Of a stretch of 64,000 nucleotides of DNA, positions 13,700-59,960 are shown piece after piece. The stretch covers positions 746,604 to 810,603 of the forward strand of contig CAWHFG010000005.1 of assembly GCA_963828435.1 (NCBI GenBank), given 5' to 3'. Origin of the DNA: an uncultured Acidimicrobiaceae bacterium (lineage in GTDB: Bacteria; Actinomycetota; Acidimicrobiia; Acidimicrobiales; Palsa-688). How positions within the stretch are numbered: the stretch's first letter is position 1; each line of letters starts with the position of its first letter. The notes beneath the pieces were generated by a model, which saw only the letters and a list, made by a program, of their open reading frames with translations, was not told the DNA's origin and made no database searches. Both the position numbers and the translations under genes were made by a program.

Positions 13700-14521
13700 T
13701 CATTCCGACTTTTCATGGCGCTGACCGCGGGTGGCCCGGAACTGCTCGATGGCCATACCGATTTCCCCGCTCTGGGCAGCCAGTGTCTGGGTGCGGTTCT
13801 CGAGCAGCAGCGTGGACTCGAAACTGGACCCTGGTCCACCCCCGGCGGTGATCATCTCCTTGGTGAGGCTGACCGCGAACGGCGGGTTGGCGAGGATCAG
13901 TCGGGCCAGATCCACCGCCGCCGGGATCGTCTCCGATCCGGCCACGACTCGATTCACGATCCCCCACCGTTCCGCCTCCAGTGCGTCCAGCGTGCGACCA
14001 GTAAGCAGCAGTTCCGCAGCTCGACCGCTACCAACCAAACGCGGCAGGAAATAGCTGAGACCCATCTCTCCCCCGGATAAGCCGATCTTCACGTTCGCTA
14101 CCACGAATACGGCGTCCGTCGACGCCACCCGCAGGTCCGCGGCCAGGGCCAGAGCAAAACCGCCGCCGGCCGCGGGACCGTTGACCGCGGCCACCACCGG
14201 CACCATGAGACTGCGCAGGTGGGAGACCAGCGACCCCCAGCGCTGCTGATCCCGGTATTGCCAGACGACGCGGCCCTCGTCGGAATCAGAAGCGGCCACC
14301 TCGCTCGCCATGTCGGACTGCAGATCGAACCCGGCGCAGAAACCCCGGCCGGCGCCGGTGAGAATGACTGCCCGGGCCGTGCGATCGGCCGCCAACTCGT
14401 CCACCTTCGAGTGGAGAACCTCGACCAACTCGGGCGTGATGGCGTTGAGACGTTGCGGGCGGTTCAGGGTGACCAGCTTGATGCCCGCCTCGATCTCCGA
14501 CAGTTCGACGATCTCACTCAT
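13700..14521 (-). CDS. enoyl-CoA hydratase/isomerase
   Basis: IKLVTLNRPQRLNAI and AVILTGAGRGFCAGFDL. Confidence 0.85.
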   Translation of the reverse strand: MSEIVELSEIEAGIKLVTLNRPQRLNAITPELVEVLHSKVDELAADRTARAVILTGAGRGFCAGFDLQSDMASEVAASDSDEGRVVWQYRDQQRWGSLVSHLRSLMVPVVAAVNGPAAGGGFALALAADLRVASTDAVFVVANVKIGLSGGEMGLSYFLPRLVGSGRAAELLLTGRTLDALEAERWGIVNRVVAGSETIPAAVDLARLILANPPFAVSLTKEMITAGGGPGSSFESTLLLENRTQTLAAQSGEIGMAIEQFRATRGQRHEKSE

Positions 14522-14760: not shown

Positions 14761-14776
14761 GTGTCCATGTGTCCAT
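14761..14776. repeat. tandem 8-mer GTGTCCAT x2
   Basis: Read directly from the sequence: gtgtccatgtgtccat. Confidence 0.9.
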
Positions 14777-14780
14777 ATCA

Positions 14781-14808
14781 GACAGTTGACAGTTGACAGT
14801 TGACAGTG
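14781..14808. repeat. tandem heptamer GACAGTT x3 + GACAGTG (three TTGACA hexamers at 7-bp phase)
   Basis: Read directly from the sequence: gacagttgacagttgacagttgacagtg. Confidence 0.95.
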
Positions 14809-14829
14809 GCAAAGCGGATGTTTTGCCAC
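14806..14829. repeat. perfect 8-bp inverted repeat GTGGCAAA-N8-TTTGCCAC
   Basis: Read directly from the sequence. It overlaps the last heptamer copy. Confidence 0.9.
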
Positions 14830-15255
14830 CTGAAAGGCCGGCCACCCTGGCGCCCGCCTGGCGCTTTTCTCTGGCGCTCCTCGACTTTTGGGACTTCTAC
14901 TCACTTTTGGTCAGATAGCCACACCTGGCGTGGTTTTTGGACCAAAGGTGGACAGATTTCCCAAAAGTGGGGGCCAGGGCAAGGACCGTTGCGTCACCCC
15001 CGGGGCTGCCACGGCAACGGGTGACATGGGTCAATTTGAAGCGCGATTGTACGCCGTGCGCCGTGACTCACACCCCCGGTGCGGCTCCCTCAGGCAACGC
15101 AGGCAGGAGCCGGGCCGAGCGGGTATCCGTCAACTAATATAGACGATTTGTGATCGTGTAGGGTGCACGGTGAGACCGGGGCGCCCGGACTCTGGAGTTG
15201 TACCATCGGACTACTGGGCCTGCGGGCCCCTGTCAGCGATCGGAGAGGGGATGGG

Positions 15256-16632
15256 GTGGGCGTGAGCCCGGCAGGACCGGTACGACTGCTGGCGAACTGT
15301 GTGGTGGGATTGGGGTTCTCCCGTCGCGGCTTCCGGCTGGGCCTGGAGCGGGAGCCTCACACGATCGGGTGCGACGCCGGCAGCGCTGATTTCGGGCCCG
15401 GCTTCTTGGGAAGTGGGCGAGACCCCAAGTCTCGCCTGTCGGTCGAGAGGGACCTGAGCATCATGATCCAGGGTGGCAAGGAAGTCGGGGCCCCGGTCGT
15501 CATCGGCTCGTGCGGGGGAGCCGGCGGGCGTCCTCATCTGGACGGCTTCCGCCATATCGTCACCGACATCGCCCGCGAGCACGGGCTGCGCCTGAGGATT
15601 GCGCTGGTCCACGCCGAGCAGGACAGGGCCGATATCCACCGGGCCCTCGATGAGGGTCGGATCCACCCGCTGGGTCCTGTCCCCCCGCTCACCCACCAGG
15701 CCATCGATGCCTCAACCCGGATCGTGGGCATGGCGGGAGCAGGTCCCATCGTCACAGGCCTGGACGCAGGGGCGGACGTGGTCCTGGCGGGACGGTGTGC
15801 GGATCCGGCTATCTTCGCCGCTACCCCCCTCCGCCTCGGCCTCCCCGCCGGACCGGCCTGGCATGCAGCCAAGAGCATCGACAAGGGCTATCTGGCCACC
15901 ACCTCACCGCAACACGGCTCTCCGGTCCTCGCCACGGTGGACACCGACAGCTTCACGGTCGAACCCATGCTGCCCGAGGCGGTCTGCTCAGTACAGTCCG
16001 TCGCTCGCATTACCATGCACGAAAACCCCGACCCCCACGCCATCACCCTTCCGACCGGAGCCATCCTGACGGCAGGGGCCCGCTACGAGCAGCTGGACCC
16101 GCGCCAGGTGCGGGTGACCGGGAGCGAGTTCGCCTTGACTGCGACGCCTTCCATCAAGCTGGAGGGGGCGTCGCTGGTTGGCTACCGCTCCGTCATGATC
16201 GCAGGCATACGGGATCCTCGTCTGCTTGAGCGCTTCGACGACTTCCTCAGCGCCTACCGGGCTCTGCTGGAAAAGGTCGTGGCGTCCATCGGAATTCGAC
16301 CGGAACAGTGGTCCGTCCGTTTTCGGCCCTACGGTCATAACGCCGTCCTCGGCCCGGTCGAGCCGCAGGCCGGTACGGATATGCACGAAGTCGGACTCGT
16401 CGTCGACGTCGTAGCCGAAACCGAGCAGATCGCCGCTGCCGTCTGCGGCCGAGCCGGGGCCACCGGGTCTCGGCTTGACATCACCGGCCAGCTCGGTGGT
16501 GGGGGAAACTTTGCCTATCCCTTCTCGCCGAACGTTCTCTCCGGGGGACCCGTGTACGAATGGTCCGTGTGGCATATCCTCGAGGTAACGGACGAGGGCG
16601 ACCCTTTCAGACTGGAAGTCATCGACATTTGA
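15256..16632 (+). CDS. AtuA-like (acyclic terpene utilisation, DUF1446) family protein
   Basis: GTG 15256 or 15262 follows GGAGAGGGGA. The family pattern is IGCDAGSADFGPGFLGSG...VVIGSCGGAGG...DVVLAGRCADPAIFA. The track ORF 15163.. is over-extended. Confidence 0.7.
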   Translation: MGVSPAGPVRLLANCVVGLGFSRRGFRLGLEREPHTIGCDAGSADFGPGFLGSGRDPKSRLSVERDLSIMIQGGKEVGAPVVIGSCGGAGGRPHLDGFRHIVTDIAREHGLRLRIALVHAEQDRADIHRALDEGRIHPLGPVPPLTHQAIDASTRIVGMAGAGPIVTGLDAGADVVLAGRCADPAIFAATPLRLGLPAGPAWHAAKSIDKGYLATTSPQHGSPVLATVDTDSFTVEPMLPEAVCSVQSVARITMHENPDPHAITLPTGAILTAGARYEQLDPRQVRVTGSEFALTATPSIKLEGASLVGYRSVMIAGIRDPRLLERFDDFLSAYRALLEKVVASIGIRPEQWSVRFRPYGHNAVLGPVEPQAGTDMHEVGLVVDVVAETEQIAAAVCGRAGATGSRLDITGQLGGGGNFAYPFSPNVLSGGPVYEWSVWHILEVTDEGDPFRLEVIDI

Positions 16633-16958
16633 TGGCCACGCTCCGCCAATTGGCCGAGACCGTCAAGAGCGCCAACGCGGGCGCGTCCTGGCTCACCTTC
16701 GATATTGTGTTCTCGGACGCCGCTCGTCTCCAGGAGGTCTGGGACACCGAGGTGGTCGGATCCGCGTTGTTCGCCCAGCTGTATCGGGTCGACGCCGACT
16801 CGGTCCGCGTATTCAGGTGCGATCCCATCAACACCATTAAAGTGACCATACCCCGGCGGTCCGGCATGGGGGGGCCGGACGAAACTGACTTCGACGGCGT
16901 GCAGCAGTTCGCTCCGCTGCTCGACGTTGAGGTGCCGCTCCCGCCAGACATCGGCTAA
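16632..16958 (+). CDS. DUF4387-like small partner of AtuA
   Basis: ATG 16632 overlaps the AtuA stop (TGATG). 108 aa: MATLRQLAETVKSANAGASWLTFDIVF... This pairing is usual for AtuA-family genes. Confidence 0.6.
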   Translation: MATLRQLAETVKSANAGASWLTFDIVFSDAARLQEVWDTEVVGSALFAQLYRVDADSVRVFRCDPINTIKVTIPRRSGMGGPDETDFDGVQQFAPLLDVEVPLPPDIG

Positions 16959-16979
16959 ACCCGCCAGACATCAACTAAA
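16940..16979. repeat. imperfect tandem duplication, 20 bp x2 (18/20 identical), spanning two convergent stop codons
   Basis: cccgccagacatcggctaaa / cccgccagacatcaactaaa. The first copy holds the TAA of the DUF4387 gene. The second copy holds the stop of the GntR gene on the other strand. Confidence 0.9.
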
Positions 16980-28159: not shown

Positions 28160-28191
28160 GGCTCATCGGCTAGTCGGCTCATCGGCTAGTC
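28160..28191. repeat. perfect tandem duplication, 16 bp x2 (GGCTCATCGGCTAGTC)
   Basis: Read directly from the sequence. It lies in the divergent region between the broken ALDH gene and the PadR gene. Confidence 0.95.
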
Positions 28192-42667: not shown

Positions 42668-43285
42668 GGTCACAGGAGGTTGGCCTCATATCCAGTTCGA
42701 TACGAACCCGATTGCCAACAATCCATCCGCCTGACGGGAGGGCGAGGTTGAAGTCCATAGCCACATACCGTCGAGGTCGCGAGAGGGCAACGAAGGTCGT
42801 GGTCGTGGGGTCGCTCACCGTCGGATCCTTTCACGAACTCGGTCTGCAGGCCCCTCCAACGTAACTCATGTCCGGTCTTGGGCTCCGCGGGGTGCGAGGT
42901 CAACCGTGTCCGCTACTCCTTTCCGCCCTGTCGTTCACTGGCCAACGCCTTGACAGTACTCTCCTATTCCCATAAGTCTGATGCAGTGACTAAACTTTCT
43001 GCCAGCGCACCTGCAAGACCGCACGGCGCGAGCGACCCGGACCCGCCATGAGTGACCATCCCCAAGTCTGCTGGGCAATCCGTCGCCCGTTTGTGTCCAC
43101 CTGCCGGCCTGACCGTTGCAGTTGCAACCATGTGCCTGGCCCCCTGCAGTTGGACCGGTTCTCACCGGTCCTCGAAGCCCAGGACTGGCGTGACCTGACC
43201 TGGCTGCGGTGCCGCCAGCCGGAGGGCGGGCGGATCGGGTTCGTGCTCCAGCATGCCCTCACCTGGTTGGATGCCCGGCGGCGGG

Positions 43286-43321
43286 CCGGTGACAAACTAC
43301 GGGCCAGTGACAAACTAGCAG
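43286..43321. repeat. imperfect tandem 18-mer x2 containing GTGACAAACTA twice (43289-43299, 43307-43317)
   Basis: Read directly from the sequence, about 115 nt upstream of the LLM gene start at 43434. Confidence 0.9.
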
Positions 43322-43433: not shown

Positions 43434-44615
43434 ATGGCCGCCGTTCCCCTGGCCGTTCTCGACCTTATCCCGGTTTCCTCGGGATCCAACCCCAGCCAGG
43501 CTCTGCGCAATACTGTCGACCTGGCCCGACAGAGCGAACGGTTCGGGTACACGCGCTATTGGTTCGCCGAGCACCATCTGAACCCGGGGGTCATCGGCGT
43601 CGCCCCTTCCGTGGCCATCTCTCTGATCGCCGGCGTCACCTCCGCCATCCGCCTGGGCTCCGCCGGGGTCCAGATCGGCCACCGCACCCCCCTCTCGGTC
43701 GTCGAGGAGTTTGGTCTGATCGATGCCCTCTACCCGGGGCGGCTCGACCTGGGCATCGGCCGCTCCATCGGCCGTCCGGCGCCGACCCCCGAGGGACCTG
43801 AGCCCGGACTGGCCGCCTCGGCGGCCGCCGCCAGCTATCGGGCCCGGGGCGGCGGTGGCGCCCACACCGTCGAGGAGCACACCGACAACGGACTCCTTCT
43901 CCCCAAACGTTTTGATTTCACCAAGCTGGCCGGATCGCCCCGCCTGGCGCTCAGCCTGTCCCTCCTGCAACAACCCAACGCCTACACCCCGCCCTACGAC
44001 GAACAGATCAGCGACCTGCTCGACCTGCTCAAGGGCACCTACCGATCCGCCGATGGTCTTGAAGCCCACGCCTACCCGGGGGAAGGCGCCAACCTGGAGG
44101 TCTGGATCCTGGGCGCCTCCGGCGGCGAGAGCGCTCAGGTAGCTGGCGCCCACGGTCTGCCCTTCGCCGCCTCTTACCATCACAGCCCCAGCACCGTGCT
44201 CGACGCGGTCGACGCCTATCGAGCCGCCTTCCAACCGTCGGACGTGTTGGACCAACCGTACGTCTCCGTGTCCGCCGATGTGGTCGCGGCCCCAGATGAC
44301 GACACGGCCAACTGGTTGGCGTCAGGATACGGGCTTTGGGTTCGCAGCATCCGCTCCGGTACGGGCGCTATCCCGTTCCCCACCCCCGAAGAGGCCTCGG
44401 CCCACCAGTGGAGCGACGAAGATCGGGCCCTGGTGAAGGACCGCATCGACACCCAGTTGGTCGGCTCCCCCCGAACCGTGACGGACCGGCTTGACCAGCT
44501 CCAGCAGGCCACCGGAGCCGACGAGCTCGCCATTACCACCATTGCGCATCAACACGCAGATCGGGTTCGCTCCTACCAGCTCCTGGCCCACGAGTGGCAG
44601 CGGCGGCATCCGTAG
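43434..44615 (+). CDS. LLM-class flavin-dependent oxidoreductase (luciferase family group 1-like)
   Basis: PLAVLDLIPVSSGSNPSQALRNTVDLARQSERFGYTRYWFAEHHLNPGV...RLGSAGVQIGHRTPLSVVEEF. Confidence 0.75.
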   Translation: MAAVPLAVLDLIPVSSGSNPSQALRNTVDLARQSERFGYTRYWFAEHHLNPGVIGVAPSVAISLIAGVTSAIRLGSAGVQIGHRTPLSVVEEFGLIDALYPGRLDLGIGRSIGRPAPTPEGPEPGLAASAAAASYRARGGGGAHTVEEHTDNGLLLPKRFDFTKLAGSPRLALSLSLLQQPNAYTPPYDEQISDLLDLLKGTYRSADGLEAHAYPGEGANLEVWILGASGGESAQVAGAHGLPFAASYHHSPSTVLDAVDAYRAAFQPSDVLDQPYVSVSADVVAAPDDDTANWLASGYGLWVRSIRSGTGAIPFPTPEEASAHQWSDEDRALVKDRIDTQLVGSPRTVTDRLDQLQQATGADELAITTIAHQHADRVRSYQLLAHEWQRRHP

Positions 44616-44639: not shown

Positions 44640-45837
44640 ATGGCCAAATCCACGCCCTTGCACCTGGCGGCCGCTCTCGACGGCGCCGGGTGGCATCCCG
44701 CCGCTTGGCGCGAGCCGTCGGCGCGCCCCGCCGAGCTGTTCACCCCCCGCTATTGGGTCGACCTGGTCGCCGAAGCAGAGAGAGGCCTGCTCGACTTCGT
44801 CACCGTCGAGGACTCCCTCGGCCAGCAGTCCTCCCACTTCGACGGCCCCGACGGCCGCACCGACCAAGTCAGAGGTCGCCTGGACGCGGTGCTGATCGCG
44901 GCCCGCGTCGCGCCGGTCACTACCCATGTCGGACTCATCCCCACCGCCACGGTCACCCACACCGAGCCATTCCACATCTCCAAGGCCATCGCCACCCTCG
45001 ATTACATCAGCAACGGCCGGGCCGGTTGGCGGGTGCAGCTGTCCCGCCCCGCTGAAAACGCCCACTTCGGACGCCGCCCGCAAGCGTTTCCCCTCGAGGA
45101 CTATCCGGGTCGCGTACCGCAAGACGTCATGTCGGCACGCTTCGACGAAGCCGCCGACTTCGTCGAAGTGGTCCGACGGCTCTGGGACAGCTGGGAAGAC
45201 GACGCCGAAATCCGCGACGCCGCAACGGGCCGTTTCATCGACCGGAACAAGCTCCACTACATCAACTTCCAGGGCCGGTGGTTCAATGTCAAAGGACCGT
45301 CAATCACGCCCGCGCCCACCACAAGGGCAGCCGCCGGTCACCGCCCTCGCCCACGCCAGCATCCCCTACCGCTTCGCCGCCCAGGCCGCCGATATCGTTT
45401 ATATCACTCCGACTGACGCCGACCACGCCGCGGCGATCGTCGGCGAGATCCGCGCCGAACAAGTGGCGGCCGGTCGAAGCCGCGACACCGTACACGTGTT
45501 CGCAGACCTCGTCATCTTCATGGACGATAGCCGCGGCCAAGCCGAGGATCGCAAGGCGCGCCTGGACGATCTGGACGGCACCACCTACCAAAGCGATGCT
45601 CTGACCTTCATGGGGACTCCAACCGAGCTTGGCGATTTGTGCGAGGAATGGCAGCAGGCCGGCATCTCGGGATTCCGGTTGCGGCCAGGCGCCATACCGC
45701 ACGACCTGGAAAGAATTGCTCGAGACCTGATCCCGGAACTGCAGCGCCGGCAGATGTTCCGCCATCACTACCAGGCTGGTTCCCTCCGAGCCCGACTGGG
45801 TTTGGCCTACCCCGCCAACCGCTATGCCCCCACCTAG
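44640..45837 (+). pseudogene. LLM-class flavin monooxygenase (NtaA/DszA-like) with one frameshift near 45305
   Basis: Frame 1 reads MAKSTPLHLAAALDGAGWHPAAW...FVTVEDSL...TEPFHISKAIATLDYISNGRAGWRV...FNVKGPSITP. Frame 2 continues RPPQGQPPVTALAHASIPYRFAAQAADIVYI... to the stop at 45837. Confidence 0.7.
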
Positions 45838-47251: not shown

Positions 47252-48187
47252 CTACCCGCTGCTGCTGCGCCCGGACCGGCGGTACGCGACAAAGGGCGCG
47301 GCGCGCTGGATCCGACCCGGTAGTGCTGCTGGCCGGTCTCGAAGGGCCTGCTGGGCTTGTTCGGCTGGAGCGCCGAACCGCAGGAGCCGGCCGCCGAAGG
47401 CGATGGAACAGATGGCGAACCACGCCCACCCGAAGGCCAGACCCGCCAGCACATCAGTGAGCCAGTGCACCCCCAGGAAGACCCGGCTGGACGCGATGCC
47501 GACGGCGAGCGCCACGGCGATGCCGGCGAGGATCGCCTTGGCCCGCGAGGACCGGCCGATTCCGGCCAGGAGGGCGAAGGCCGCGAAGGACGCCGCGGAG
47601 GCGGCCGCGTGACCGGAAGGAAAGGAAGGGCCGCTGAAGCCGGTGAGCCGATCGATGTCCGGACGGGTTCGATCGACGATCCACTTGATCAGGTCAACGA
47701 CCGCGAACTGGCCACCGACGGTCAGGGCAAGGAAGCAGGCCACGGCGGGGAGGCGCTCCCGTCGCACCACGGCGACGCACATTACGGCCGCGAAGGGCCC
47801 GAGGAAGGCGGCCCCGCCCAACACGGAGAGATCGCGTAGCACCCGCGTGGACGCCGGGCTCGCATGGGCGGCCGCGAAGCGGGCTGCGCTGAGGTCGAAC
47901 CGAGCGAAGCCGATGTTGGTGCGGATCATCCACACCAGCAGGCCGAAGGCTACGACCCCGGCTACCAGCAGGATGAGGCCGGCCGTGAGGGCCAGCCCGG
48001 TAGTGGAGTTCGGGTCCAGACGAGAATCAACCAGGGCCGCGGCGCGGGGATGCCGGCGTACTTCACCCCGGATGTGCTCCGGCTTCACCCGGGGCGCCAG
48101 CTGAAATGCGGTCCAGCGGTGCGCCGCCAGCCAGACCGAAGTCCCGGTGACCGCCATGAGGGCCGCCGTGATGCCAATAATCAGCAT
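47252..48187 (-). CDS. PAP2-family lipid phosphate phosphatase
   Basis: All three PAP2 motifs are present: KWIVDRTRP, PSGH and SRVFLGVHWLTD. The protein has multiple TM helices. Confidence 0.8.
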   Translation of the reverse strand: MLIIGITAALMAVTGTSVWLAAHRWTAFQLAPRVKPEHIRGEVRRHPRAAALVDSRLDPNSTTGLALTAGLILLVAGVVAFGLLVWMIRTNIGFARFDLSAARFAAAHASPASTRVLRDLSVLGGAAFLGPFAAVMCVAVVRRERLPAVACFLALTVGGQFAVVDLIKWIVDRTRPDIDRLTGFSGPSFPSGHAAASAASFAAFALLAGIGRSSRAKAILAGIAVALAVGIASSRVFLGVHWLTDVLAGLAFGWAWFAICSIAFGGRLLRFGAPAEQAQQALRDRPAALPGRIQRAAPFVAYRRSGRSSSG

Positions 48188-48224
48188 GGGGACGTCTGGC
48201 GGCGTCTACGTTGGCTGGTTCCGG

Positions 48225-49190
48225 TCATGACCCGACCGGCACGGGTGTCTTGCCCGCGCCGGGCTCGGACTCGGCCACCTTTTCCTGGTCCTGGGGCGCG
48301 GGCTCCCCGACCCGGACCGACTCCAGCTCGGCCGCAACTGCCGCCCCAAACAGCAGCGCCATGGCCGAGAACAGGCACCACCACAGCAAGGCGATGAGGC
48401 CGGCGAGCGGGCCGTAGGTCTGGCCGAACGACGAGCTGAACCGGTAAAACACGCCGAGTCCGATGGTGACAGCAGCCCACAGCAGCACCGAGACCCCGGC
48501 CCCGAAGGCCAGCCAGGACAATCGAGGTTGGCGGCGGCGGGGGGACCACCGGAACAGCAGTGTCACCGCCACGGTGATGAGCACCAAGCCCAGCGGCCAC
48601 CGACCGATGGCCCACGCGGTGTTGAGGTCGGTGTTGGTCGTGTGCAGGATCTCCCGGCCGAACGCCAGGCAACCGAACGACACCGCCACCAGGGTGCCCG
48701 CGCTGAGGGCGAACAGCAGCGCGAGCCCGTATTTCTGAAGACTGGGACGGTCTTGCTCGACTCCGTACAGGCGATTGAGGCCGCGTTCCAGCTGCCCCAT
48801 GACCGTGGTACCGGTGACGAGGCATCCGGCCACACCGAAGATGAGGGCGCCGTACCGGTGCTCGAGGGCCGTCGTGTGCGCCTGCACGACGGCGCTGGTC
48901 AGCACCTGACCGGCCGGGCCGGGCACCGCCCGCCTGACCGCGGCGACGACTGTGCTGCCGATCTGGCCCTTGTCGAAGAGGCTGGCCAACCCAACCAGCC
49001 CGATCACCCCCTGGACGGCCACGAGGGTGGTCATGAAGGCAACCGAGCGGGCGTGGCTGAAGCCGTCGGCGACTCGCATCCGCTGCCAGGCGTCCTTCAA
49101 GAGCTGCCGCTTACCGGCCCGCGACAGCGTGGTCCAGGCGTCGTCGCCGGACAAACCCACCGTTTCCGGAACCAGGCTGGCCGTGCTCAA
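48225..49190 (-). CDS. YihY/BrkB-family membrane protein
   Basis: FSHARSVAFMTTLVAVQGVIGLVGL..., a polytopic profile and the family-typical C-terminal YGPLAGLIALLWWCLFSAMALLFGAAV. Confidence 0.7.
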   Translation of the reverse strand: MSTASLVPETVGLSGDDAWTTLSRAGKRQLLKDAWQRMRVADGFSHARSVAFMTTLVAVQGVIGLVGLASLFDKGQIGSTVVAAVRRAVPGPAGQVLTSAVVQAHTTALEHRYGALIFGVAGCLVTGTTVMGQLERGLNRLYGVEQDRPSLQKYGLALLFALSAGTLVAVSFGCLAFGREILHTTNTDLNTAWAIGRWPLGLVLITVAVTLLFRWSPRRRQPRLSWLAFGAGVSVLLWAAVTIGLGVFYRFSSSFGQTYGPLAGLIALLWWCLFSAMALLFGAAVAAELESVRVGEPAPQDQEKVAESEPGAGKTPVPVGS

Positions 49191-50074
49191 TGCCGGCCTG
49201 TCTCAGCAACACACACCGTGATGGCGCCCGCCTCGACCCCGGCGTGCAGGCGCCGGGTCGCCTTCCGGGCGCCCCCGTCGAGTTCGTACGCAGTCGGCCT
49301 GCTCATGTTCACGGTAATACTGCGGCCCCGCCCTTTGCTCACGAAGCGAGACCGGTCGGTCCTGCCTGCTGCCAGGGCTGTGAAGAGCCTGGCCCACTCG
49401 ATGGGGCGGCTCGCGGTCACCACCGCCACCTCGAGAAGGCCGTCGTCGGGTTCAGCGTCGGCGAAGATGGTGAGTTTTCCTGTGATGGTGCCGAAGTTGC
49501 CGAGCAGCAGGCAGCTGGCCCGGCCATCGAACCAGCGCTTCCCCTCGATGTCGATGCGCATCCTCACCGGCTTCGACCCGATGGCGCGGGTGCCGCTCCA
49601 CACATAGGCGAAACGGCCCAAACGGTCCTTGAGGGCCCGGTTGGTGCCCTCCATCAAGACGGCGTCGAAACCGGCGCCGGCCATGACTGCGAAGCGCTCA
49701 CCGTTGAGCACCCCCACGTCCAGCGGGCGTCGGACCCCGTCGAGGGCGACCGCCAGCGCTCCCGGAAGGTCCATCGGAATGCCCAGGTTGCTGGCCAGGA
49801 GGTTGGCCGTGCCCGCCGGCAGAACCGCTATCGGCACGTTCGATCCCGCCAGCACGTTGATGCAGCGCTGAATGGTCCCGTCCCCACCCCAGAGCAGCAA
49901 GAGGTCGGCCCCATCTTTGATCGCCTGGCGGGCCATGGCCGGCGCTTTACGGCTCTTGCTGACCTCATACCAGATCGGATCGTTGAAACCCCTATCGGCG
50001 AGAAAACCACGTAGCTCTGCCAGGCCGCCACCCAGCGACTTCCGCCGGTGGGCCACCACGGCAATCGACGTCAC
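49187..50074 (-). CDS. diacylglycerol-kinase-like lipid kinase (DAGK catalytic domain, YegS/LCB5 type)
   Basis: LLLWGGDGTIQRCINVL and PIAVLPAGTANLLASNLGIP. Its stop overlaps the YihY start and its start overlaps the upstream PAP2 stop by 4 nt at each junction. Confidence 0.8.
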   Translation of the reverse strand: MTSIAVVAHRRKSLGGGLAELRGFLADRGFNDPIWYEVSKSRKAPAMARQAIKDGADLLLLWGGDGTIQRCINVLAGSNVPIAVLPAGTANLLASNLGIPMDLPGALAVALDGVRRPLDVGVLNGERFAVMAGAGFDAVLMEGTNRALKDRLGRFAYVWSGTRAIGSKPVRMRIDIEGKRWFDGRASCLLLGNFGTITGKLTIFADAEPDDGLLEVAVVTASRPIEWARLFTALAAGRTDRSRFVSKGRGRSITVNMSRPTAYELDGGARKATRRLHAGVEAGAITVCVAETGRH

Positions 50075-51189
50075 CGCGGCCCCGATCTCGATCCGGCGAG
50101 GGTCGGCGGCGAGCCGGCTGGAGCCGCTCGTCCGGCGCGGCGGGTCCAGACCTGGATGACGAGGATTGCCGCGCCCAGGGCGGCCCCGCCCAGGCAGAAA
50201 CCGGCGATGGTGTCGGTGGGATGATGCTCGCCACGGTAGATCCTCGATAGGGCGACGCCGATCGTGAGCCCGACCGCGGCCGTCCAGGCGGCCAGTCGCG
50301 GCAGGCGTCTGGAGGTTGCGACCATGACCAGGACCGCGATTCCTCCGTAGAGCACTGCGGTGGCGGCCACATGGCCGGAGGGCCAGCTCGAGGTCGACGG
50401 AGTGGAGCCGAGATGTGCCACCTTGGGGCGCGGCCTGTCAACGACGTAGTTCGTGGCCAGGAATACGGAGAGCTCCACGGCCAGTCCCGCGCCCAGCAGC
50501 CACGCCAATCGACCCCAGTGGCGCAGCAACAGCCACAGCGTGACCACGGCAGCCACCGAGAGGACACCTACGGTATCCGCCAGCACCGTGAAATCGCCGC
50601 TCAGGCGATTCCAAACGGAAGCCCGGTGCCCCGCGAACCACTGGTTCACGTGCTCATCCCACTGACCCAGCCGGTCGTGGACGCCAAAATGCACCATCAG
50701 CAGACCGCCTCCGATCAGCACCGCAGCGATCAGGAGGAATGCGCCGATGAAGAAATCGCCGACCGCGATCACCAGGTGCTTGTCCTGCAGCCGGGAACGA
50801 ACTCTCGTCGGGAGCTTCCAATGCCCGCCAGTCCCCTCCAGAAGGATCCGGTTCGGGGCCCGGCCATCGGCTGGAGGACCCAGAGCCCAGCCCGCCGGGC
50901 CGGGGGACATGAGGCGAGCAGGCTGCAGACCAAGGTCCATACCACCCTTTTCGCCGGCCCGGGTGCCCTCGTCGCCGGCCCGGGTGCCCTCGTCGCCGGC
51001 CCGGGTGCCCTCGTCGCCGGCCCGGGTGCCCTCGTCGCCGGCCCGGGTGCCCTCGTCGCCGGCCCGGGTGCCCTCGTCGCCGGCCCGGGTGCCCTCGTCG
51101 CCGGCCCGGGTGCCCTCGTCGCCGGCCCGTGTGATAGACACAAGTCCCCTCTCGTCGTCCCAAGAAGCACTCTGGCTGACTTCACGCAT
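50071..51189 (-). CDS. PAP2-family lipid phosphate phosphatase; N-terminal extent uncertain (ATG 51189 includes the TRAGDEG repeat, ATG 50940 excludes it)
   Basis: PAP2 motifs VDRPRP, PSGH and SRIYRGEHHPTD. The track start 51489 would overlap the divergent PLD gene by about 200 nt and is rejected. Confidence 0.7.
   Translation of the reverse strand: MREVSQSASWDDERGLVSITRAGDEGTRAGDEGTRAGDEGTRAGDEGTRAGDEGTRAGDEGTRAGDEGTRAGDEGTRAGEKGGMDLGLQPARLMSPGPAGWALGPPADGRAPNRILLEGTGGHWKLPTRVRSRLQDKHLVIAVGDFFIGAFLLIAAVLIGGGLLMVHFGVHDRLGQWDEHVNQWFAGHRASVWNRLSGDFTVLADTVGVLSVAAVVTLWLLLRHWGRLAWLLGAGLAVELSVFLATNYVVDRPRPKVAHLGSTPSTSSWPSGHVAATAVLYGGIAVLVMVATSRRLPRLAAWTAAVGLTIGVALSRIYRGEHHPTDTIAGFCLGGAALGAAILVIQVWTRRAGRAAPAGSPPTLAGSRSGPR
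50945..51133. repeat. 21-bp tandem repeat: 8 perfect copies (50952-51119) plus degenerate partial copies at both ends
   Basis: The unit is CGCCGGCCCGGGTGCCCTCGT. It is in frame with the PAP2 ORF, where it reads (TRAGDEG)n. All six reading frames are open through it. Confidence 0.95.
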
Positions 51190-51295
51190 GAGATACCCGT
51201 CCTGCCAGTGCGGCAAACCGTGGCGGTTGTCCGCGGCGGGGAGGTGAATCTGCTGCGCATCGGAGGGGTCGAGGTCGGGTAGGTAGGCACAGGTG

Positions 51296-52876
51296 ATGGC
51301 TGGCGAGGATTGGCTGCTACTGGCGTCCGAGCGGGGTAACGACGCCACGGACCTGGACCGCCGCCACCGTGACGGCCTGGCGTGGACAACAGGCAACCAG
51401 GTACGGCCGCTGATCCACGGCGCTGAGTACTTCGCCGCTCTGGCGGCCGCCATCGGGAGGATGCGGTCCGGTGACGTGCTGTTCTTCACAGACTGGCGTG
51501 GCGATCCCGATCAACACCTCGACGGCGAGGGCATCGAGGTCCGGACGGTCCTGTGCCGGGCAGCCGAGAGGGGGGTGATCGTCCGCGGTCTGATCTGGCG
51601 GTCACACCTGGATCGCTTCCAGTTTTCCGAGCGGGAGAACCGCCATCTGGGGGAGGAGATCAATGCCGCGGGAGGGAAATGCCTGCTCGACATGCGGGTT
51701 CGGCCCGGCGGCTCACACCACCAGAAGTTCGTCGTACTGCGTCATCCCGGCCGGCCAGAGCTGGACTGTGCCTTCGTCGGCGGGATCGACCTCTGTCACA
51801 GCCGTCGAGACGATGCCGCCCACGCCGGAGACATCCAGACGCAGCCTATGGCCGCGGTATATGGGCCTCGGCCTCCCTGGCACGACATCCAGGTCCAGCT
51901 GCGCGGCCCGGCGGTTGCGGATGTCGAAAGCGTGTTCCGGGAACGGTGGGACGATCCCTCCCCTCTCTCGCTCAACCCGATCCACCGGCTGCGCGACCTG
52001 ATGGGGCGGGCTACGTCCCGTTGGCGGCCCCTCCCGGACCGGCTGGACGACCCCTCGCCCTGCGGGAGCCGGACCGTACAACTGCTCCGGACCTATCCCC
52101 CTCGACTCCGGGCCTCGCCGTTCGCCCCCGAGGGTGAACGCAGCGTGGCCAGGGGTATCACCAAGGCCCTCGGCCGGGCCCGCCGCCTGGTGTACGTCGA
52201 AGATCAGTACCTGTGGTCGCGCCAGGCGGTGGCTGCCTTCTGCCGGGCCCTGGAGGATGAGCCCTCCCTGCGGTTGGTGGCGGTGGTGTCGAGCTACCCG
52301 GATCAGGACGGCCGCCTGTCGATGGCTCCGAATCTGATCGGTCGCGCCGATGCCATGGGCGCCCTGGACGAGGCCGGGGGGACGCGCGTGGCGATCTATG
52401 GTCTGCAAAACCACGCCGGCTACCCCGTCTACGTGCACGCAAAGCTGTGCATTATCGACGACGAGTGGGCGAAAGTCGGCTCCGACAACATCAATCGTAG
52501 GTCGTGGACTCACGACTCGGAGCTGGCCTGCGCGGTGGTCGACAACGCGCCGGCCGACCTGTCGGGATCCGGTGGAATGTCGTTTGGCCGGGATCTGCGT
52601 CTGCGCCTGGCCCGTGAACACCTCGACCGGGTCGACGGTGACGATGACGACCTTATGGACCCGGACAGGTTTTTTGCGGCCTTCGAGACCGCAGCCGCCG
52701 GGCTCGACGCTTGGCATGCGGCCGGACAGGTCGGGCCGCGCCCTCCGGGGCGTCTTCGACGGTTGTCGAGGCCCCATCTTTCCGGTTGGGGCCGCCTGTG
52801 GTCGGCGCCGGTGTATCGCAGGCTTTACGACCCCGACGGGCGACGCCGATCATGGCAAAAGGCCGACCGGTATTGA
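51296..52876 (+). CDS. phospholipase D-like / HKD-superfamily protein
   Basis: Two HKD-type regions: GGSHHQKFVVL...AFVGGIDL and VYVHAKLCIIDDEWAKVGSDNINRRS. It is divergent from the PAP2 gene. Confidence 0.75.
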   Translation: MAGEDWLLLASERGNDATDLDRRHRDGLAWTTGNQVRPLIHGAEYFAALAAAIGRMRSGDVLFFTDWRGDPDQHLDGEGIEVRTVLCRAAERGVIVRGLIWRSHLDRFQFSERENRHLGEEINAAGGKCLLDMRVRPGGSHHQKFVVLRHPGRPELDCAFVGGIDLCHSRRDDAAHAGDIQTQPMAAVYGPRPPWHDIQVQLRGPAVADVESVFRERWDDPSPLSLNPIHRLRDLMGRATSRWRPLPDRLDDPSPCGSRTVQLLRTYPPRLRASPFAPEGERSVARGITKALGRARRLVYVEDQYLWSRQAVAAFCRALEDEPSLRLVAVVSSYPDQDGRLSMAPNLIGRADAMGALDEAGGTRVAIYGLQNHAGYPVYVHAKLCIIDDEWAKVGSDNINRRSWTHDSELACAVVDNAPADLSGSGGMSFGRDLRLRLAREHLDRVDGDDDDLMDPDRFFAAFETAAAGLDAWHAAGQVGPRPPGRLRRLSRPHLSGWGRLWSAPVYRRLYDPDGRRRSWQKADRY

Positions 52877-53318: not shown

Positions 53319-53957
53319 ATGCCCAGGGTCTCCAGCACGGACGTGGTCAGGAAGTCTCCCGGACCCAGCGGCGCCGACACGTCAGCAGCCAGAAGTGCGG
53401 TTTCGCGGCTGGCGATTCTCAACGCGGCCCGGGAGCTGTTCTCAGTTCGGGGTTACAACGCCACTTCCATAAGCGACATCGTGGCTCGGGCAGGGACCAG
53501 CGTCGGGCTGCCTTACTATCATTTCGGCAGCAAGAAGCAGATCTTCCTCACTCTCTGGAATGACTACCAGGTGTCCCAGGAGGCTCACGCCCGGGCCGCT
53601 GTCGCCGAGGCGCGGACGGTGGGGGTGGCCGGCAAAGATCTCCTCCTGGTTGGTTCACGGGCCTACCTTCGAGGTGCCTGGGCCGCTCGGGACATCGTGC
53701 CGCTTGTGCACAGCCGCGATGCCCCGCCGGGTTTCGAAGCGGTGGCCCGCGAGGCCACCAGGAGATGGGAGCGGCAGAACCGCGCCCTCCTTTCGAGCTA
53801 CGACCCCAAGTATGTGAAAACAGCCACCGTTCTGATGGAGGGAGTTCTCGGGTCTATCTCCCTGGAACTGGCGAAATGCCGGAACGAGCTCGAAGCCAAT
53901 GAGTTGATCGAAAACTCGCTGACATTGATCGGAGGCATGCTGAGCCGGCTGGACTAG
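53319..53957 (+). CDS. TetR family transcriptional regulator
   Basis: HTH region YNATSISDIVARAGTSVGLPYYHFGSKKQIF. Confidence 0.8.
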   Translation: MPRVSSTDVVRKSPGPSGADTSAARSAVSRLAILNAARELFSVRGYNATSISDIVARAGTSVGLPYYHFGSKKQIFLTLWNDYQVSQEAHARAAVAEARTVGVAGKDLLLVGSRAYLRGAWAARDIVPLVHSRDAPPGFEAVAREATRRWERQNRALLSSYDPKYVKTATVLMEGVLGSISLELAKCRNELEANELIENSLTLIGGMLSRLD

Positions 53958-58643: not shown

Positions 58644-59960
58644 GTGGCCCGTTTGCGCGTACGGAATCCAGCGCTCGCGAGAGGACGCTGGTTGGTGGGT
58701 GTCCTGGCAGCATTGGCCCTGATTGGGTCCGCCTGCGGATCGTCCGGCAGCAAGTCGAGTTCTGGTACGTCTGCGCCGAGCGCCTCGGCTGGTGGAGCGG
58801 CTACGTCGTCGACTGGCTCGGCTGGTGGAGCCTCGTCGTCGACTGGAGCTTCGTCAAATGGATCGTCGTCGGCGAGTCCCGTCAACGTGGCACTGCTCAA
58901 CGAGACGTCCGGTGAGTTCGCCTCGCAGTTCGCGCCAAACTTGCCGGGCGTAAAATCGTGGGTGGCATACGAGAACGCGCACGGAGGGGTCGCCGGCCAC
59001 CACATCAACCTGAAGGTCTACGACAATGAGTCGAGTCCGTCGGTAGCGGTCTCAAATGCTCACCTGGCGGTGGAGCAGGGCGCGCAGGCATTTATCGATA
59101 CTGATTCGCTGTTCGACAGCTACGCGCCCTACCTCGAGGCCCAGGGGATGCCCGTGTACGCGTTCGGCATCACGCCTGGCTTCTACGGGCCTAACAACTT
59201 CTTCTCGTTCTCAGGGAACGTCACCAACGGCAAGAGCGACACGGCCTACAAGTTCGCTGACCAAATCCACCGGACCAAGTGGGCGGTGGTGTCCGACCCG
59301 AGCCCTGCCGACTCGATCGACTCGAAGGGCGTCTCCGCGCTGGCAAAGGCCAACGGCATCGACGTGGTCTACACGAACTTCAGCCTGGACGCCAGCAACA
59401 CCGCGTCGCTCCTGGCGGTAGCGCAGGCTATCAAAAGCTCTGGAGCCAACCTGGTTTCCATCGCGTCGACAGGCAATAGCGAGCCTCAACTACAAGTGGA
59501 CCTGTCCCAGGTCGGGGCATCCAACGTCTGGGTTTTGAGCGGATCCAATTTTGCCCTCAACCTGCCTAAGCAGTTCGGCACCGCCCTGAACGGCTACATG
59601 TTCGAGTCCTTCGTCGCCCCGACCACGGTTTCGGCTTCGGGCGTACAGACCTATCTGTCGGCCATGAAGCAGTACGAGCCGAGCTCCGACCCAAGTATCT
59701 TCAATTCGGAGGTGGGCTGGGGGGCCGCCTCGATGCTGGGAGCTGCGATTCAGAAGATCGGAAGCGGGCCGGTCACGAAGGCCAGCATCGTCCAGGCGTC
59801 GAACAGCCTCCAGAACTTCAATGCCGACGGCTTCCTGGCTCCGGTCAGCTTCCCTGCGTTCCATACCGAGGCGACCCAGTGTCTCTCCTTTGTCCAGGTC
59901 ATGAACGGCCAGTGGAGCCTCATCAGCGGCAGCCAGTCAAGCCCGTTCTTCTGCGGGTGA
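58644..59960 (+). CDS. ABC transporter substrate-binding lipoprotein (Leu/Ile/Val-binding-type)
   Basis: Signal peptide plus lipobox (LALIGSAC) and a Ser/Gly-rich linker. It belongs to the same family as 21292..22611. Confidence 0.8.
   Translation: MARLRVRNPALARGRWLVGVLAALALIGSACGSSGSKSSSGTSAPSASAGGAATSSTGSAGGASSSTGASSNGSSSASPVNVALLNETSGEFASQFAPNLPGVKSWVAYENAHGGVAGHHINLKVYDNESSPSVAVSNAHLAVEQGAQAFIDTDSLFDSYAPYLEAQGMPVYAFGITPGFYGPNNFFSFSGNVTNGKSDTAYKFADQIHRTKWAVVSDPSPADSIDSKGVSALAKANGIDVVYTNFSLDASNTASLLAVAQAIKSSGANLVSIASTGNSEPQLQVDLSQVGASNVWVLSGSNFALNLPKQFGTALNGYMFESFVAPTTVSASGVQTYLSAMKQYEPSSDPSIFNSEVGWGAASMLGAAIQKIGSGPVTKASIVQASNSLQNFNADGFLAPVSFPAFHTEATQCLSFVQVMNGQWSLISGSQSSPFFCG

Follow-up and report, generated by a model that had tools for sequence, protein, structure and literature searches.

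An array of identical 21-bp repeats lies near the 5' end of a gene for a PAP2-family lipid phosphatase in the 64,000-nucleotide stretch of Acidimicrobiaceae DNA analysed here (the window), and raises the question of whether the repeats belong to the phosphatase itself or to the control region between this gene and a divergently transcribed PLD-superfamily gene. A preliminary description had left both readings standing, with translation beginning either at ATG 51189, ahead of the array, or at ATG 50940, behind it. Both codons are present in the sequence, and Pfam matches bear out that the PAP2 and PLD genes are divergent. When the locus is compared with eight orthologous ones from Acidimicrobiaceae MAGs (nine sequences with the window), neither codon emerges as the likely start; translation probably begins at GTG 51141 (minus strand), three codons ahead of the array. 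The array is thus very probably an in-frame coding minisatellite (of the coding VNTR or aaTR kind) at the 5' end of a PAP2 phosphatase gene that starts at GTG 51141, and a product of recent slippage.

The repeat array and the translation start

In the assembled sequence, eight identical copies of CGCCGGCCCGGGTGCCCTCGT (plus-strand register) begin at positions 50952, 50973, 50994, 51015, 51036, 51057, 51078 and 51099, as first described; 0.02 matches would be expected by chance, and none of 100 shuffles reached eight. With up to three mismatches allowed, no additional copy was found within the 64-kb window. TRF delimited the array as 50951-51133, with a period of 21, 8.7 copies, 99% matches and a score of 359, compared with 103 for the runner-up array in the window. 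Degenerate partial copies had been reported on both sides: the right flank (51120-51133, CGCCGGCCCGTGTG) clearly repeats part of the unit, with a single mismatch, and takes the whole array to 51133, but the left flank (50944-50951) resembles the unit only weakly and, in the coding sense, closes a ninth unit that has diverged. Eight perfect units plus partial copies go well beyond the three or more head-to-tail copies, far above chance, by which an aaTR is recognized.

The sequence GAGAGGGGAtct-GTG-TCT-ACG-ACN-TGG-GCN-GGC-GAY-GA is common to the window and the eight orthologues, the window's motif being altered by T3 to I and by W5 to R at a tryptophan that is invariant in the eight orthologues. 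Each orthologue has a GAGAGGGGA ribosome-binding site, then the GTG, then the peptide V-S-T-T-W-A-G-D-D, and in five of them (P0002, P0004, P0007, P0009 and P0010) separate gene calls begin at the conserved GTG. An in-frame stop codon lies 39 nt upstream of the GTG in L054, with no ATG, GTG or TTG between, and L002 has a stop at -93. Over codons 1-9 of the nine sequences, pairwise differences are 0.093 at the first codon position, 0.049 at the second and 0.302 at the third, and this variation mainly at the third position indicates that the N-terminus is translated. Because of the changes at T3 and W5, the N-terminus encoded in the window may be under relaxed constraint, and a move of initiation to ATG 50940 in this lineage is conceivable, if improbable.

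The conservation of GTG 51141 upstream of the array argues that the array is coding, and on comparative evidence it lies within the translated region, as codons 4-66 of the revised PAP2 coding sequence, beginning 10 nt past the start codon. The unit of 21 nt (seven codons) is divisible by three and keeps the frame from GTG 51141 into the PAP2 core; every third codon position of the array in this frame is G or C (GC3 of 1.0), as the preliminary description had stated. Openness of the array was dropped as coding evidence: several frames on both strands are likewise open, because the GC content is high.

With the PAP2 start at GTG 51141, the divergent spacer is 151 bp long and the array lies outside it, so the 355-bp promoter region once thought to be half filled by the array has to be given up. 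At the PLD start, CATCAC (that is, GTGATG) is kept in six syntenic orthologues (L001, L002, L004, L051, L052 and L054), and L053 has CACAC; PAP2/PLD synteny is retained in L001, L002, L004, L051 and L054. Following the GGGTATCTC box, the leader of the nine sequences measures 48, 47, 27, 41, 45, 48, 50, 46 and 48 nt, differences that are not multiples of three. A promoter and terminator scan called no consensus sigma-70 promoter and no terminator, and since the two conserved upstream boxes fail the sigma-70 consensus rule, they are putative promoter elements. Rfam and tRNA scans gave no match. On the other side of the gene, the overlap between the kinase start and the PAP2 stop suggests translational coupling (Table 1).

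Table 1. Features of the PAP2/PLD locus, in window coordinates.
Feature	Position	Strand	Basis
Second PAP2 gene, last in operon	47252..48187	-	same order in L051
YihY/BrkB-family membrane protein, overlaps kinase stop	48225..49190	-	profile matches
YegS/DAGK-type lipid kinase, start overlaps PAP2 stop (GTGA)	49187..50074	-	profile matches
Revised PAP2-family lipid phosphatase CDS, 356 aa (probable start)	50071..51141, stop 50071-50073	-	conservation in 8/8 orthologues; Pfam PAP2, 60.3 bits
Degenerate terminal unit, ACC CGG GCC GGC GAA AAG GGT (TRAGEKG)	50944..50964	-	length comparison with L053
Eight perfect 21-nt units, CGCCGGCCCGGGTGCCCTCGT	50952..51119	-	exact matches; TRF score 359
Heptads 2-8, seven identical ACC CGG GCC GGC GAC GAG GGC (TRAGDEG)	50965..51111	-	sequence check; translation
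Heptad 1, ACA CGG GCC GGC GAC GAG GGC (T4-R-A-G-D-E-G10)	51112..51132	-	codon and DNA alignments
Shine-Dalgarno-like GAGAGGGGA, 3 nt upstream of GTG 51141	51145..51153	-	(nearly) invariant columns, all orthologues
Divergent PAP2/PLD intergenic spacer, 151 bp, GTG 51141 to GTG 51293	51142..51292	.	orthologue alignment
Conserved non-coding box GGGTATCTC, candidate -10 region; ATG 51189 next to it	51190..51198	-	GGGTAT.TC invariant in 9/9; putative role
Conserved box GGTTTGC, 14 nt upstream of GGGTATCTC, candidate -35 region	51213..51219	-	alignment; putative role
PLD-superfamily gene (PLDc_2/PLDc; weak ClsB-like matches)	51293..52876	+	profile matches

Origin of the repeat and the encoded tail

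In both the codon and the DNA alignment, heptad 1 is the positional orthologue of the conserved T-W-A-G-D-D of the orthologues. Judged from these alignments, the repeat unit copies a motif that belongs to the clade's own N-terminus and reads T-W-A-G-D-D/E in relatives and T-R-A-G-D-E here. The array amounts to exactly 56 residues (eight heptads, TRAGDEG) beyond any orthologue, and when eight units are subtracted, the distance from the start to the conserved GPxxW motif equals that of L053. Differences between units are confined to the two edge units, and such confinement of substitutions to the edges is the usual pattern of tandem arrays. Short self-similar GC strings (CGGGCCGGCGA) abound in the 21-nt segment that would have been duplicated and subsequently multiplied, whether by replication slippage or by unequal recombination, probably recently, in view of interior units that carry no substitution. 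The earlier reading of perfect identity as recent slippage is reasonable. A MIRU-like intergenic element was considered and rejected, the unit coming from the gene's own codons and occurring nowhere else in the window.

Among 120 proteins scanned, including the window's own, none of the 119 other homologues has an N-tail repeat, TRAGDEG-like or other, which answers the call of the preliminary description for a search of orthologues for TRAGDEG-like repeats. C-tail repeats, three residues long and in three copies, occur in P0010 and P0056. The best relative has 66% identity, with none above it in the collections, and clustering at 90% identity leaves the protein in a cluster of one. A metagenome scan with CGGGCCGGCGACGAGGGCACC, a rotation also able to catch a one-copy allele, returned 12 loci and no second array or allele. 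These 12 loci were rejected as alleles and taken for chance matches, because all are single-copy and in unrelated genes.

The protein matches PAP2 (PF01569) with 60.3 bits, compared with a gathering cut-off of 27.2, and contains PSGH at residue 254 and SRX5HX3D, as SRIYRGEHHPTD, at residue 299. The first PAP2 motif (KX6RP) reads VVDRPRP, with the RP present and no lysine seven residues upstream; RPRP is invariant in the family alignment. The six-helix fold was recovered by Foldseek, whose best match was 5jki (B. subtilis PgpB/YodM; E = 1.8e-5, TM-score on the target 0.75), and phmmer matched the same entry (E = 6.7e-6). Undecaprenyl-diphosphatase equivalogs of NCBIfam scored 19-32 bits, far short of the cut-offs of 229-250, and support no substrate assignment.

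AlphaFold gives residues 1 to ~70 a pLDDT below 50 and no secondary structure, with the core above 90; the array-encoded segment is predicted to be disordered, with the qualification that the low values of the tail may partly reflect a lack of aligned homologues across the insert. Six hydrophobic helices are present, PSGH and SRX5HX3D lie in loops across the membrane from both tails, five K/R and no D/E occur in the C-tail, and a K/R-rich stretch precedes TM1. The six TM helices, the placement of the motifs and the distribution of charge make the tail that carries the array likely cytoplasmic, opposite an extracytoplasmic PAP2 active site, the same side on which the preliminary description had put the N-terminus. 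The product of the array would be a disordered, low-complexity segment of Gly, Ala, Thr, Asp, Glu and Arg with a net charge of about -8, most likely with little or no effect on catalysis.

Copy number, alternative starts and the assembly

Two consequences of copy-number change had been foreseen. One, length change in seven-residue steps, stands with an array that is coding; the other, altered promoter geometry, falls with an array outside the spacer. Gain or loss of units would thus lengthen or shorten the tail by seven residues at a time, with no frameshift and with promoter geometry unchanged. There is no support for the further suggestion of a contingency locus that would remodel the envelope: a unit of 21 nt is frame-neutral at any copy number and permits no on/off switching by frameshift, the conserved boxes and the ribosome-binding site lie outside the array, and the tail of this envelope lipid phosphatase is probably cytoplasmic. 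Promoter repeats of the dop type carry promoter elements or a transcription start in each unit, but the unit here derives from codons 4-10 and has no promoter-like hexamers.

The array might still be a functional tuning knob that acts on operon expression through GC-rich mRNA structure or G-tracts, or else through motif valency or length, giving heritable and reversible variation in lipid remodelling. It lies 10 nt past the start codon of the first gene in a four-gene lipid operon that is probably translationally coupled, has 18 GGG tracts on its coding strand and repeats the most conserved part of the tail, and tandem repeats of Actinobacteria are capable of variation at rates between 10^-2 and 10^-3 per chromosome (PMC12817950). 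Such a function is nevertheless unlikely. The fold of 287 nt, at -146 kcal/mol, is very stable in absolute terms, but neither RNA nor DNA folds are more stable than those of dinucleotide shuffles (z = 0.10 for RNA and 1.45 for DNA); the stability was therefore rejected as evidence of a selected structure, and the folding calculations give no hint of regulation through structure. The computed energy for opening the ribosome-binding site and start is 8.7-11.4 kcal/mol with 0-16 extra units, with an odd/even wobble and no trend. Moreover, the copied motif lacks its invariant tryptophan, and the absence of any such array from the 119 other homologues gives no sign of recurrent selection. It is quite unlikely that the nine tandem motif copies form a hypervariable module whose copy number differs among cells and tunes either the translation of the coupled PAP2, kinase, YihY and PAP2 genes or a cytoplasmic docking motif, in its valency or its reach.

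If translation started at ATG 50940, the array would be untranslated 5' leader or promoter DNA, and the divergent PAP2/PLD control region would take its geometry from the number of copies. This ATG has AAGGGTGGT directly before it, the window's N-terminal motif without the conserved tryptophan favours the later start, and a similar ambiguity between coding and promoter sequence was settled for the promoter in the 57-bp dop repeat of M. tuberculosis (PMC12817950). However, none of the eight orthologues has a methionine aligned with position 50940, and all of them, together with the window, keep the ribosome-binding site, the GTG and the N-terminal peptide upstream. The purine-rich stretch touches the ATG with essentially zero spacing, the 21-nt unit keeps the PAP2 frame open with a GC3 of 1.0, and the conserved promoter-like boxes are all upstream of the array and none inside. 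The non-coding reading is therefore highly improbable.

Initiation at ATG 51189, the start picked by the source's gene caller (P0001), would give a protein of 372 aa with 16 extra residues before the array and the N-terminal peptide MREVSQSASWDDER. L004 likewise has an ATG at the equivalent position, but the other seven orthologues have AGG, TTG, ACT, TTC, ATT, ATT and ATT there, and the codon directly adjoins the invariant GGGTATYTC box. The indels between this point and the GTG are not multiples of three, and the in-frame stop in L054 interrupts the frame. GC3 from ATG 51189 to the array is just 0.63-0.73, compared with ~0.8 in the gene body, a weakness remarked on from the outset that fits a non-coding stretch. 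A start here is scarcely credible, and of the reading built on it the translation of the array survives, supported by the GTG, ribosome-binding site and peptide conserved in 8/8 orthologues, and the unconserved ATG does not. For annotation, the database call (372 aa, ATG 51189) and both starts of the preliminary description are probably wrong, and GTG 51141 should replace them.

Assemblies are known to go wrong at tandem repeats (PMC6868369), but it is most improbable that the array or its count of eight is an assembly or polishing artefact absent from the organism: the array keeps the frame, has degenerate edge units as is biologically typical, sits exactly inside a conserved coding motif and lies within a 1.38-Mb source contig; the nearest relatives are Nanopore long-read MAGs (PMC12313526), and long reads easily span a 183-bp array; and an assembler may get the number of units wrong but will not make up a repeat of 21 nt.

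Relation to known systems

The coding minisatellite most resembles the aaTRs of the Borg elements of Methanoperedens, in which perfect repeats of a length divisible by three give rise to disordered protein segments and are flanked by partial repeats (Schoelmerich et al. 2023, PMC9879509). Shared features are perfect head-to-tail units without SNPs, flanking partial units, a preserved ORF, a unit whose length is a multiple of three (the Borg examples include units of 21 nt), a product predicted to be intrinsically disordered and often in membrane proteins, and absence of the repeat from close homologues, which implies a recent origin. In contrast to the genome-wide repeats of an extrachromosomal element, there is here a single array in 64 kb of a bacterial (Acidimicrobiaceae) chromosome, and it is GC-rich, whereas Borg repeats are A-enriched.

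The pe/ppe and other VNTR loci of M. tuberculosis (PMC12817950) are likewise found in a high-GC actinobacterium, gain and lose repeat units in frame and originate by slipped-strand events or recombination, as is probable here; unlike those loci, the present gene encodes neither a PE/PPE protein nor a surface antigen, and its tail is probably cytoplasmic. With the dop/lpdA promoter repeats of M. tuberculosis, which phase-vary by copy number (PMC12817950), and with classical simple-sequence contingency loci, the array has in common a position near a gene start that is ambiguous, from annotation, between coding and promoter sequence. It differs from them in lying downstream of a conserved start, in containing neither the upstream boxes nor the ribosome-binding site, and in a 21-nt unit that causes no frame switch.

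The enzyme itself resembles the PAP2 phosphatases B. subtilis PgpB/YodM (PDB 5jki), E. coli PgpB and LpxE in its PAP2 domain, its PSGH and SRX5HX3D motifs and its six-helix core. Its differences are an identity of only ~24%, a first motif without the canonical lysine, and a long N-terminal tail of ~120 residues (~65 with the array taken away) for which the solved enzymes have no counterpart.

The array belongs to a known kind (coding VNTR/aaTR) and is probably an ordinary product of recent slippage. It opens no long-standing question. If the source reads held several copy numbers, it would be a strain marker for this uncultured Acidimicrobiaceae lineage and a small natural experiment on the tail length that a PAP2 enzyme tolerates. 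Were the hypervariable module real, it would represent in-frame, non-switching contingency variation in the membrane-lipid remodelling of a soil actinobacterium. With the ancestral single-copy state retained in eight orthologues, the array would be a clean, datable case of how a bacterial membrane enzyme, through the amplification of seven codons of its own gene, acquires a new disordered stretch in its tail.

Composition of the array and the start of the PAP2 gene

The unit CGCCGGCCCGGGTGCCCTCGT occurs in eight contiguous exact copies at 50952-51119 of the window (G+C content 65.6%), as the preliminary description had stated and as exact matching and Tandem Repeats Finder (50951-51133, period 21, 8.7 copies, 99% matches, score 359) both bear out. 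The runner-up array in the 64-kb window scores 103. Matches to a 21-nt unit expected by chance in the window number 0.02, and a scan of the 64 kb with up to three mismatches found no copy of the unit outside the array. Of the degenerate partial copies claimed for both flanks, the right one is a 14-nt partial unit with one mismatch (51120-51133), whereas the left flank has weak similarity to the unit. The encoded peptide is (TRAGDEG)8, followed by TRAGEKG.

Coordinates of the array in coding register, its gene neighbourhood and other features of the window
Feature	Position	Strand	Remarks
Heptad 1	51132-51112	-	ACA CGG GCC GGC GAC GAG GGC, x1
Heptads 2-8	51111-50965	-	ACC CGG GCC GGC GAC GAG GGC, x7
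Degenerate last heptad	50964-50944	-	ACC CGG GCC GGC GAA AAG GGT, x1
Long open frame with PAP2 domain	50071-51489	-	PF01569, 60.3 bits
YegS/DAGK-type lipid kinase gene	49187-50074	-	start overlaps PAP2 stop
YihY/BrkB membrane protein gene	48225-49190	-	
Second PAP2 gene	47252-48187	-	
PLD-superfamily gene	51293-52876	+	divergent from PAP2
TetR gene	53319-53957		after PLD gene
Enoyl-CoA hydratase gene	13700-14521	-	
TTGACAG repeat	14761-14830		GTGTCCAT x2, then perfect GACAGTT x3.9
AtuA-like gene	15163-16632	+	
Two-copy direct repeat	16940-16979		20 nt
Two-copy direct repeat	28160-28191		16 nt, perfect
Two-copy direct repeat	43282-43317		18 nt
Luciferase-like monooxygenase ORFs	43434-44615, 44926-45837	+	PF00296, different frames
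Periplasmic-binding-protein gene	58644-59960		
Second-strongest tandem repeat	58784-58871		33 nt x2, 90% matches, score 103; overlapping 15 nt x2.5; near 5' end of the periplasmic-binding-protein gene

The database gene call for the PAP2 protein (P0001, 372 aa) starts at ATG 51189, as did the coding reading of the array in the preliminary description. The gene was compared with its orthologues at eight loci of uncultured Acidimicrobiaceae/Actinomycetota: L001-L004 from species-representative genomes and L051-L054 via the contigs of homologues. The nearest homologues (61-66% identity, about 300 aa) have N-termini of the form (M/V)STTWAGD(D/E), which align with V-S-I-T-R-A-G-D-E of the window, directly before the array. 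A block GAGAGGGGAtct-GTG-TCT-ACG-ACN-TGG-GCN-GGC-GAY-GA is common to the window, where its GTG lies at 51141-51139 on the minus strand, and to all eight orthologues. L054 has an in-frame stop 39 nt 5' of the conserved GTG with no ATG, GTG or TTG in between, and L002 has one at -93. Upstream of the GTG, an invariant GGGTATYTC box is found in the window and the orthologues at distances of 48, 47, 27, 41, 45, 48, 50, 46 and 48 nt; because the differences are not multiples of three, the stretch between is non-coding. ATG 51189, immediately 3' of this box, occurs only in the window and L004. Across codons 1-9 from the GTG, the first, second and third codon positions show pairwise differences of 0.093, 0.049 and 0.302, a pattern that marks a translated peptide under constraint, although the sample is small.

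From the conserved block, the upstream stops, the non-triplet leader and the codon-position pattern, we conclude that the PAP2 coding sequence most likely spans 50071-51141 (356 aa), with the array as codons 4-66 and a PAP2/PLD spacer of 151 bp (51142-51292). The array is thereby kept as coding, with GTG 51141 in place of ATG 51189. The alternative start at ATG 50940, which would leave the array non-coding, is disfavoured: no Met aligns with it in any of the eight orthologues, and the purine-rich AAGGGTGGT adjoins it without spacing. Nor does the array half fill a divergent promoter region of about 355 bp, as had been proposed, since the spacer is shorter and the array lies within the gene.

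The spacer holds invariant non-coding boxes in the window and all eight orthologues: GGTTTGC and GGGTATYTC, 14 nt apart, 5' of PAP2 (51190-51219). Another (51270-51292) adjoins the PLD GTG on its 5' side, so that the PLD leader could be very short or absent; its sequence is TGGGTAAGCACAGG, and TAGGTAGGCACAGG in the window. The boxes gave no match in a sigma-70 consensus scan; they may serve as promoters or as operators, for instance for the adjacent TetR.

Gene neighbourhood and protein product

The order PLD / PAP2-kinase-YihY(-PAP2) is found again in related genomes. The first PAP2 gene and the genes at 47252-50074 form a conserved cluster in which stop and start codons overlap, and in the homologue P0033 (522 aa) PAP2 and DAGK are naturally fused, which together point to a putative coupled phosphatase/kinase lipid cycle.

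In an AlphaFold model built with 51 aligned sequences, residues 1 to ~70 lack secondary structure and stay under pLDDT 50, and the helical core (~120-340) has pLDDT above 90. Among solved structures, B. subtilis PgpB/YodM (PDB 5jki) matches best (Foldseek E = 1.8e-5, TM-score 0.75 on target; phmmer E = 6.7e-6). The protein has six hydrophobic helices, with PSGH (254) in the loop after helix 3 and SRX5HX3D (299) in the loop after helix 5, and therefore with both motifs on the side opposite the termini. A K/R-rich stretch precedes helix 1, and the C-tail has five K/R and zero D/E. Bacterial PAP2 lipid phosphatases that have been characterised have an outward-facing active site, as established for PgpB; because the motifs lie opposite the termini, the repeat-bearing N-tail is probably cytoplasmic. 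The array, with a net charge of -8 over its eight heptads, is predicted to lengthen this disordered tail by 56 residues.

Origin of the array and alternative explanations

Heptad 1 occupies the position of the conserved T-W-A-G-D-D/E of the orthologues, so the unit was copied from the N-terminal motif of the gene itself. Once the eight units are taken out, the start-to-GPxxW distance equals that of L053, so the excess in the window protein is exactly 8 x 7 = 56 residues. All units but the two at the edges are identical, a pattern typical of arrays whose interior units multiply through slippage or unequal exchange, and zero substitutions within 168 nt suggest a recent expansion. The N-terminal heptad would have been copied and then amplified by either process. 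The motif itself is changed in the window (T3 to I, W5 to R); replacement of W5, invariant in 8/8 orthologues, together with T3 hints at relaxed constraint on the N-tail. The search for TRAGDEG-like repeats in orthologues that had been advised gave no N-tail repeat in any other protein among 120 homologues. Small C-tail repeats are present in P0010 (residues 278-288, VGR x3.7) and P0056 (residues 248-256, APT x3), and the C-terminus of P0028 has a low-complexity AP[AH][DQ]-type repeat; in the PAP2 clade, repeat insertions seem to be tolerated in either tail.

A role of the array as a regulatory tuning knob is an unlikely possibility that has no positive support. The 18 GGG tracts on the coding strand make G-rich structures conceivable. 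The array RNA with leader (-146 kcal/mol) and the array DNA fold no better than dinucleotide shuffles (z = 0.10 and 1.45), the predicted opening energy of the ribosome-binding site and start codon is trendless (8.7-11.4 kcal/mol over 0-16 extra units), and scans for Rfam families, tRNAs, consensus promoters and terminators found none.

An assembly artefact is unlikely, because the reading frame is preserved, the edge units are degenerate and the array falls exactly inside a coding motif that is conserved. The source contig measures 1.38 Mb, and the nearest relatives are Nanopore long-read soil/sediment MAGs (PMC12313526), whose reads easily span 183 bp, although a miscount by one or two units is possible (compare PMC6868369 on repeats and assembly). 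The protein collection holds no relative above 66% identity, the protein's cluster has one member, and a metagenome-contig scan for the unit gave 12 matches, all unrelated, single-copy and due to chance. The proposed contingency locus for envelope remodelling failed the tests that define a classical contingency locus, the array giving neither a frameshift switch nor a promoter-spacing effect.

Elsewhere in the window, the TTGACAG repeat contains the -35 consensus TTGACA three or four times in phase with a 7-nt period, followed by an inverted repeat (TGGCAAAgcggatgTTTTGCCA), in an AT-richer gap of ~640 bp between the enoyl-CoA hydratase and AtuA-like genes; as a candidate promoter repeat of the spacing type it surpasses the 21-bp array. 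The short direct repeats may be operator-like sites or chance, and the split PF00296 matches may reflect a pair of genes, a frameshift or a pseudogene.

The array is thus a real, recent, in-frame coding minisatellite that in all likelihood arose by slippage and is near-neutral. Its nearest published counterpart is found in Borg elements, in which perfect tandem repeats with units divisible by three give rise to amino-acid repeats that are disordered and often lie in membrane proteins (PMC9879509). The nearest actinobacterial parallel is provided by coding VNTRs and in-frame structural variants of M. tuberculosis, where the dop promoter repeat presented the same coding-or-promoter ambiguity (PMC12817950). 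Whereas that ambiguity was settled by TSS mapping (PMC12817950), here it was settled by comparative sequence, with corrections to the PAP2 start codon and to the intergenic region as by-products. In-frame coding minisatellites are a known phenomenon, to which this array adds one example.
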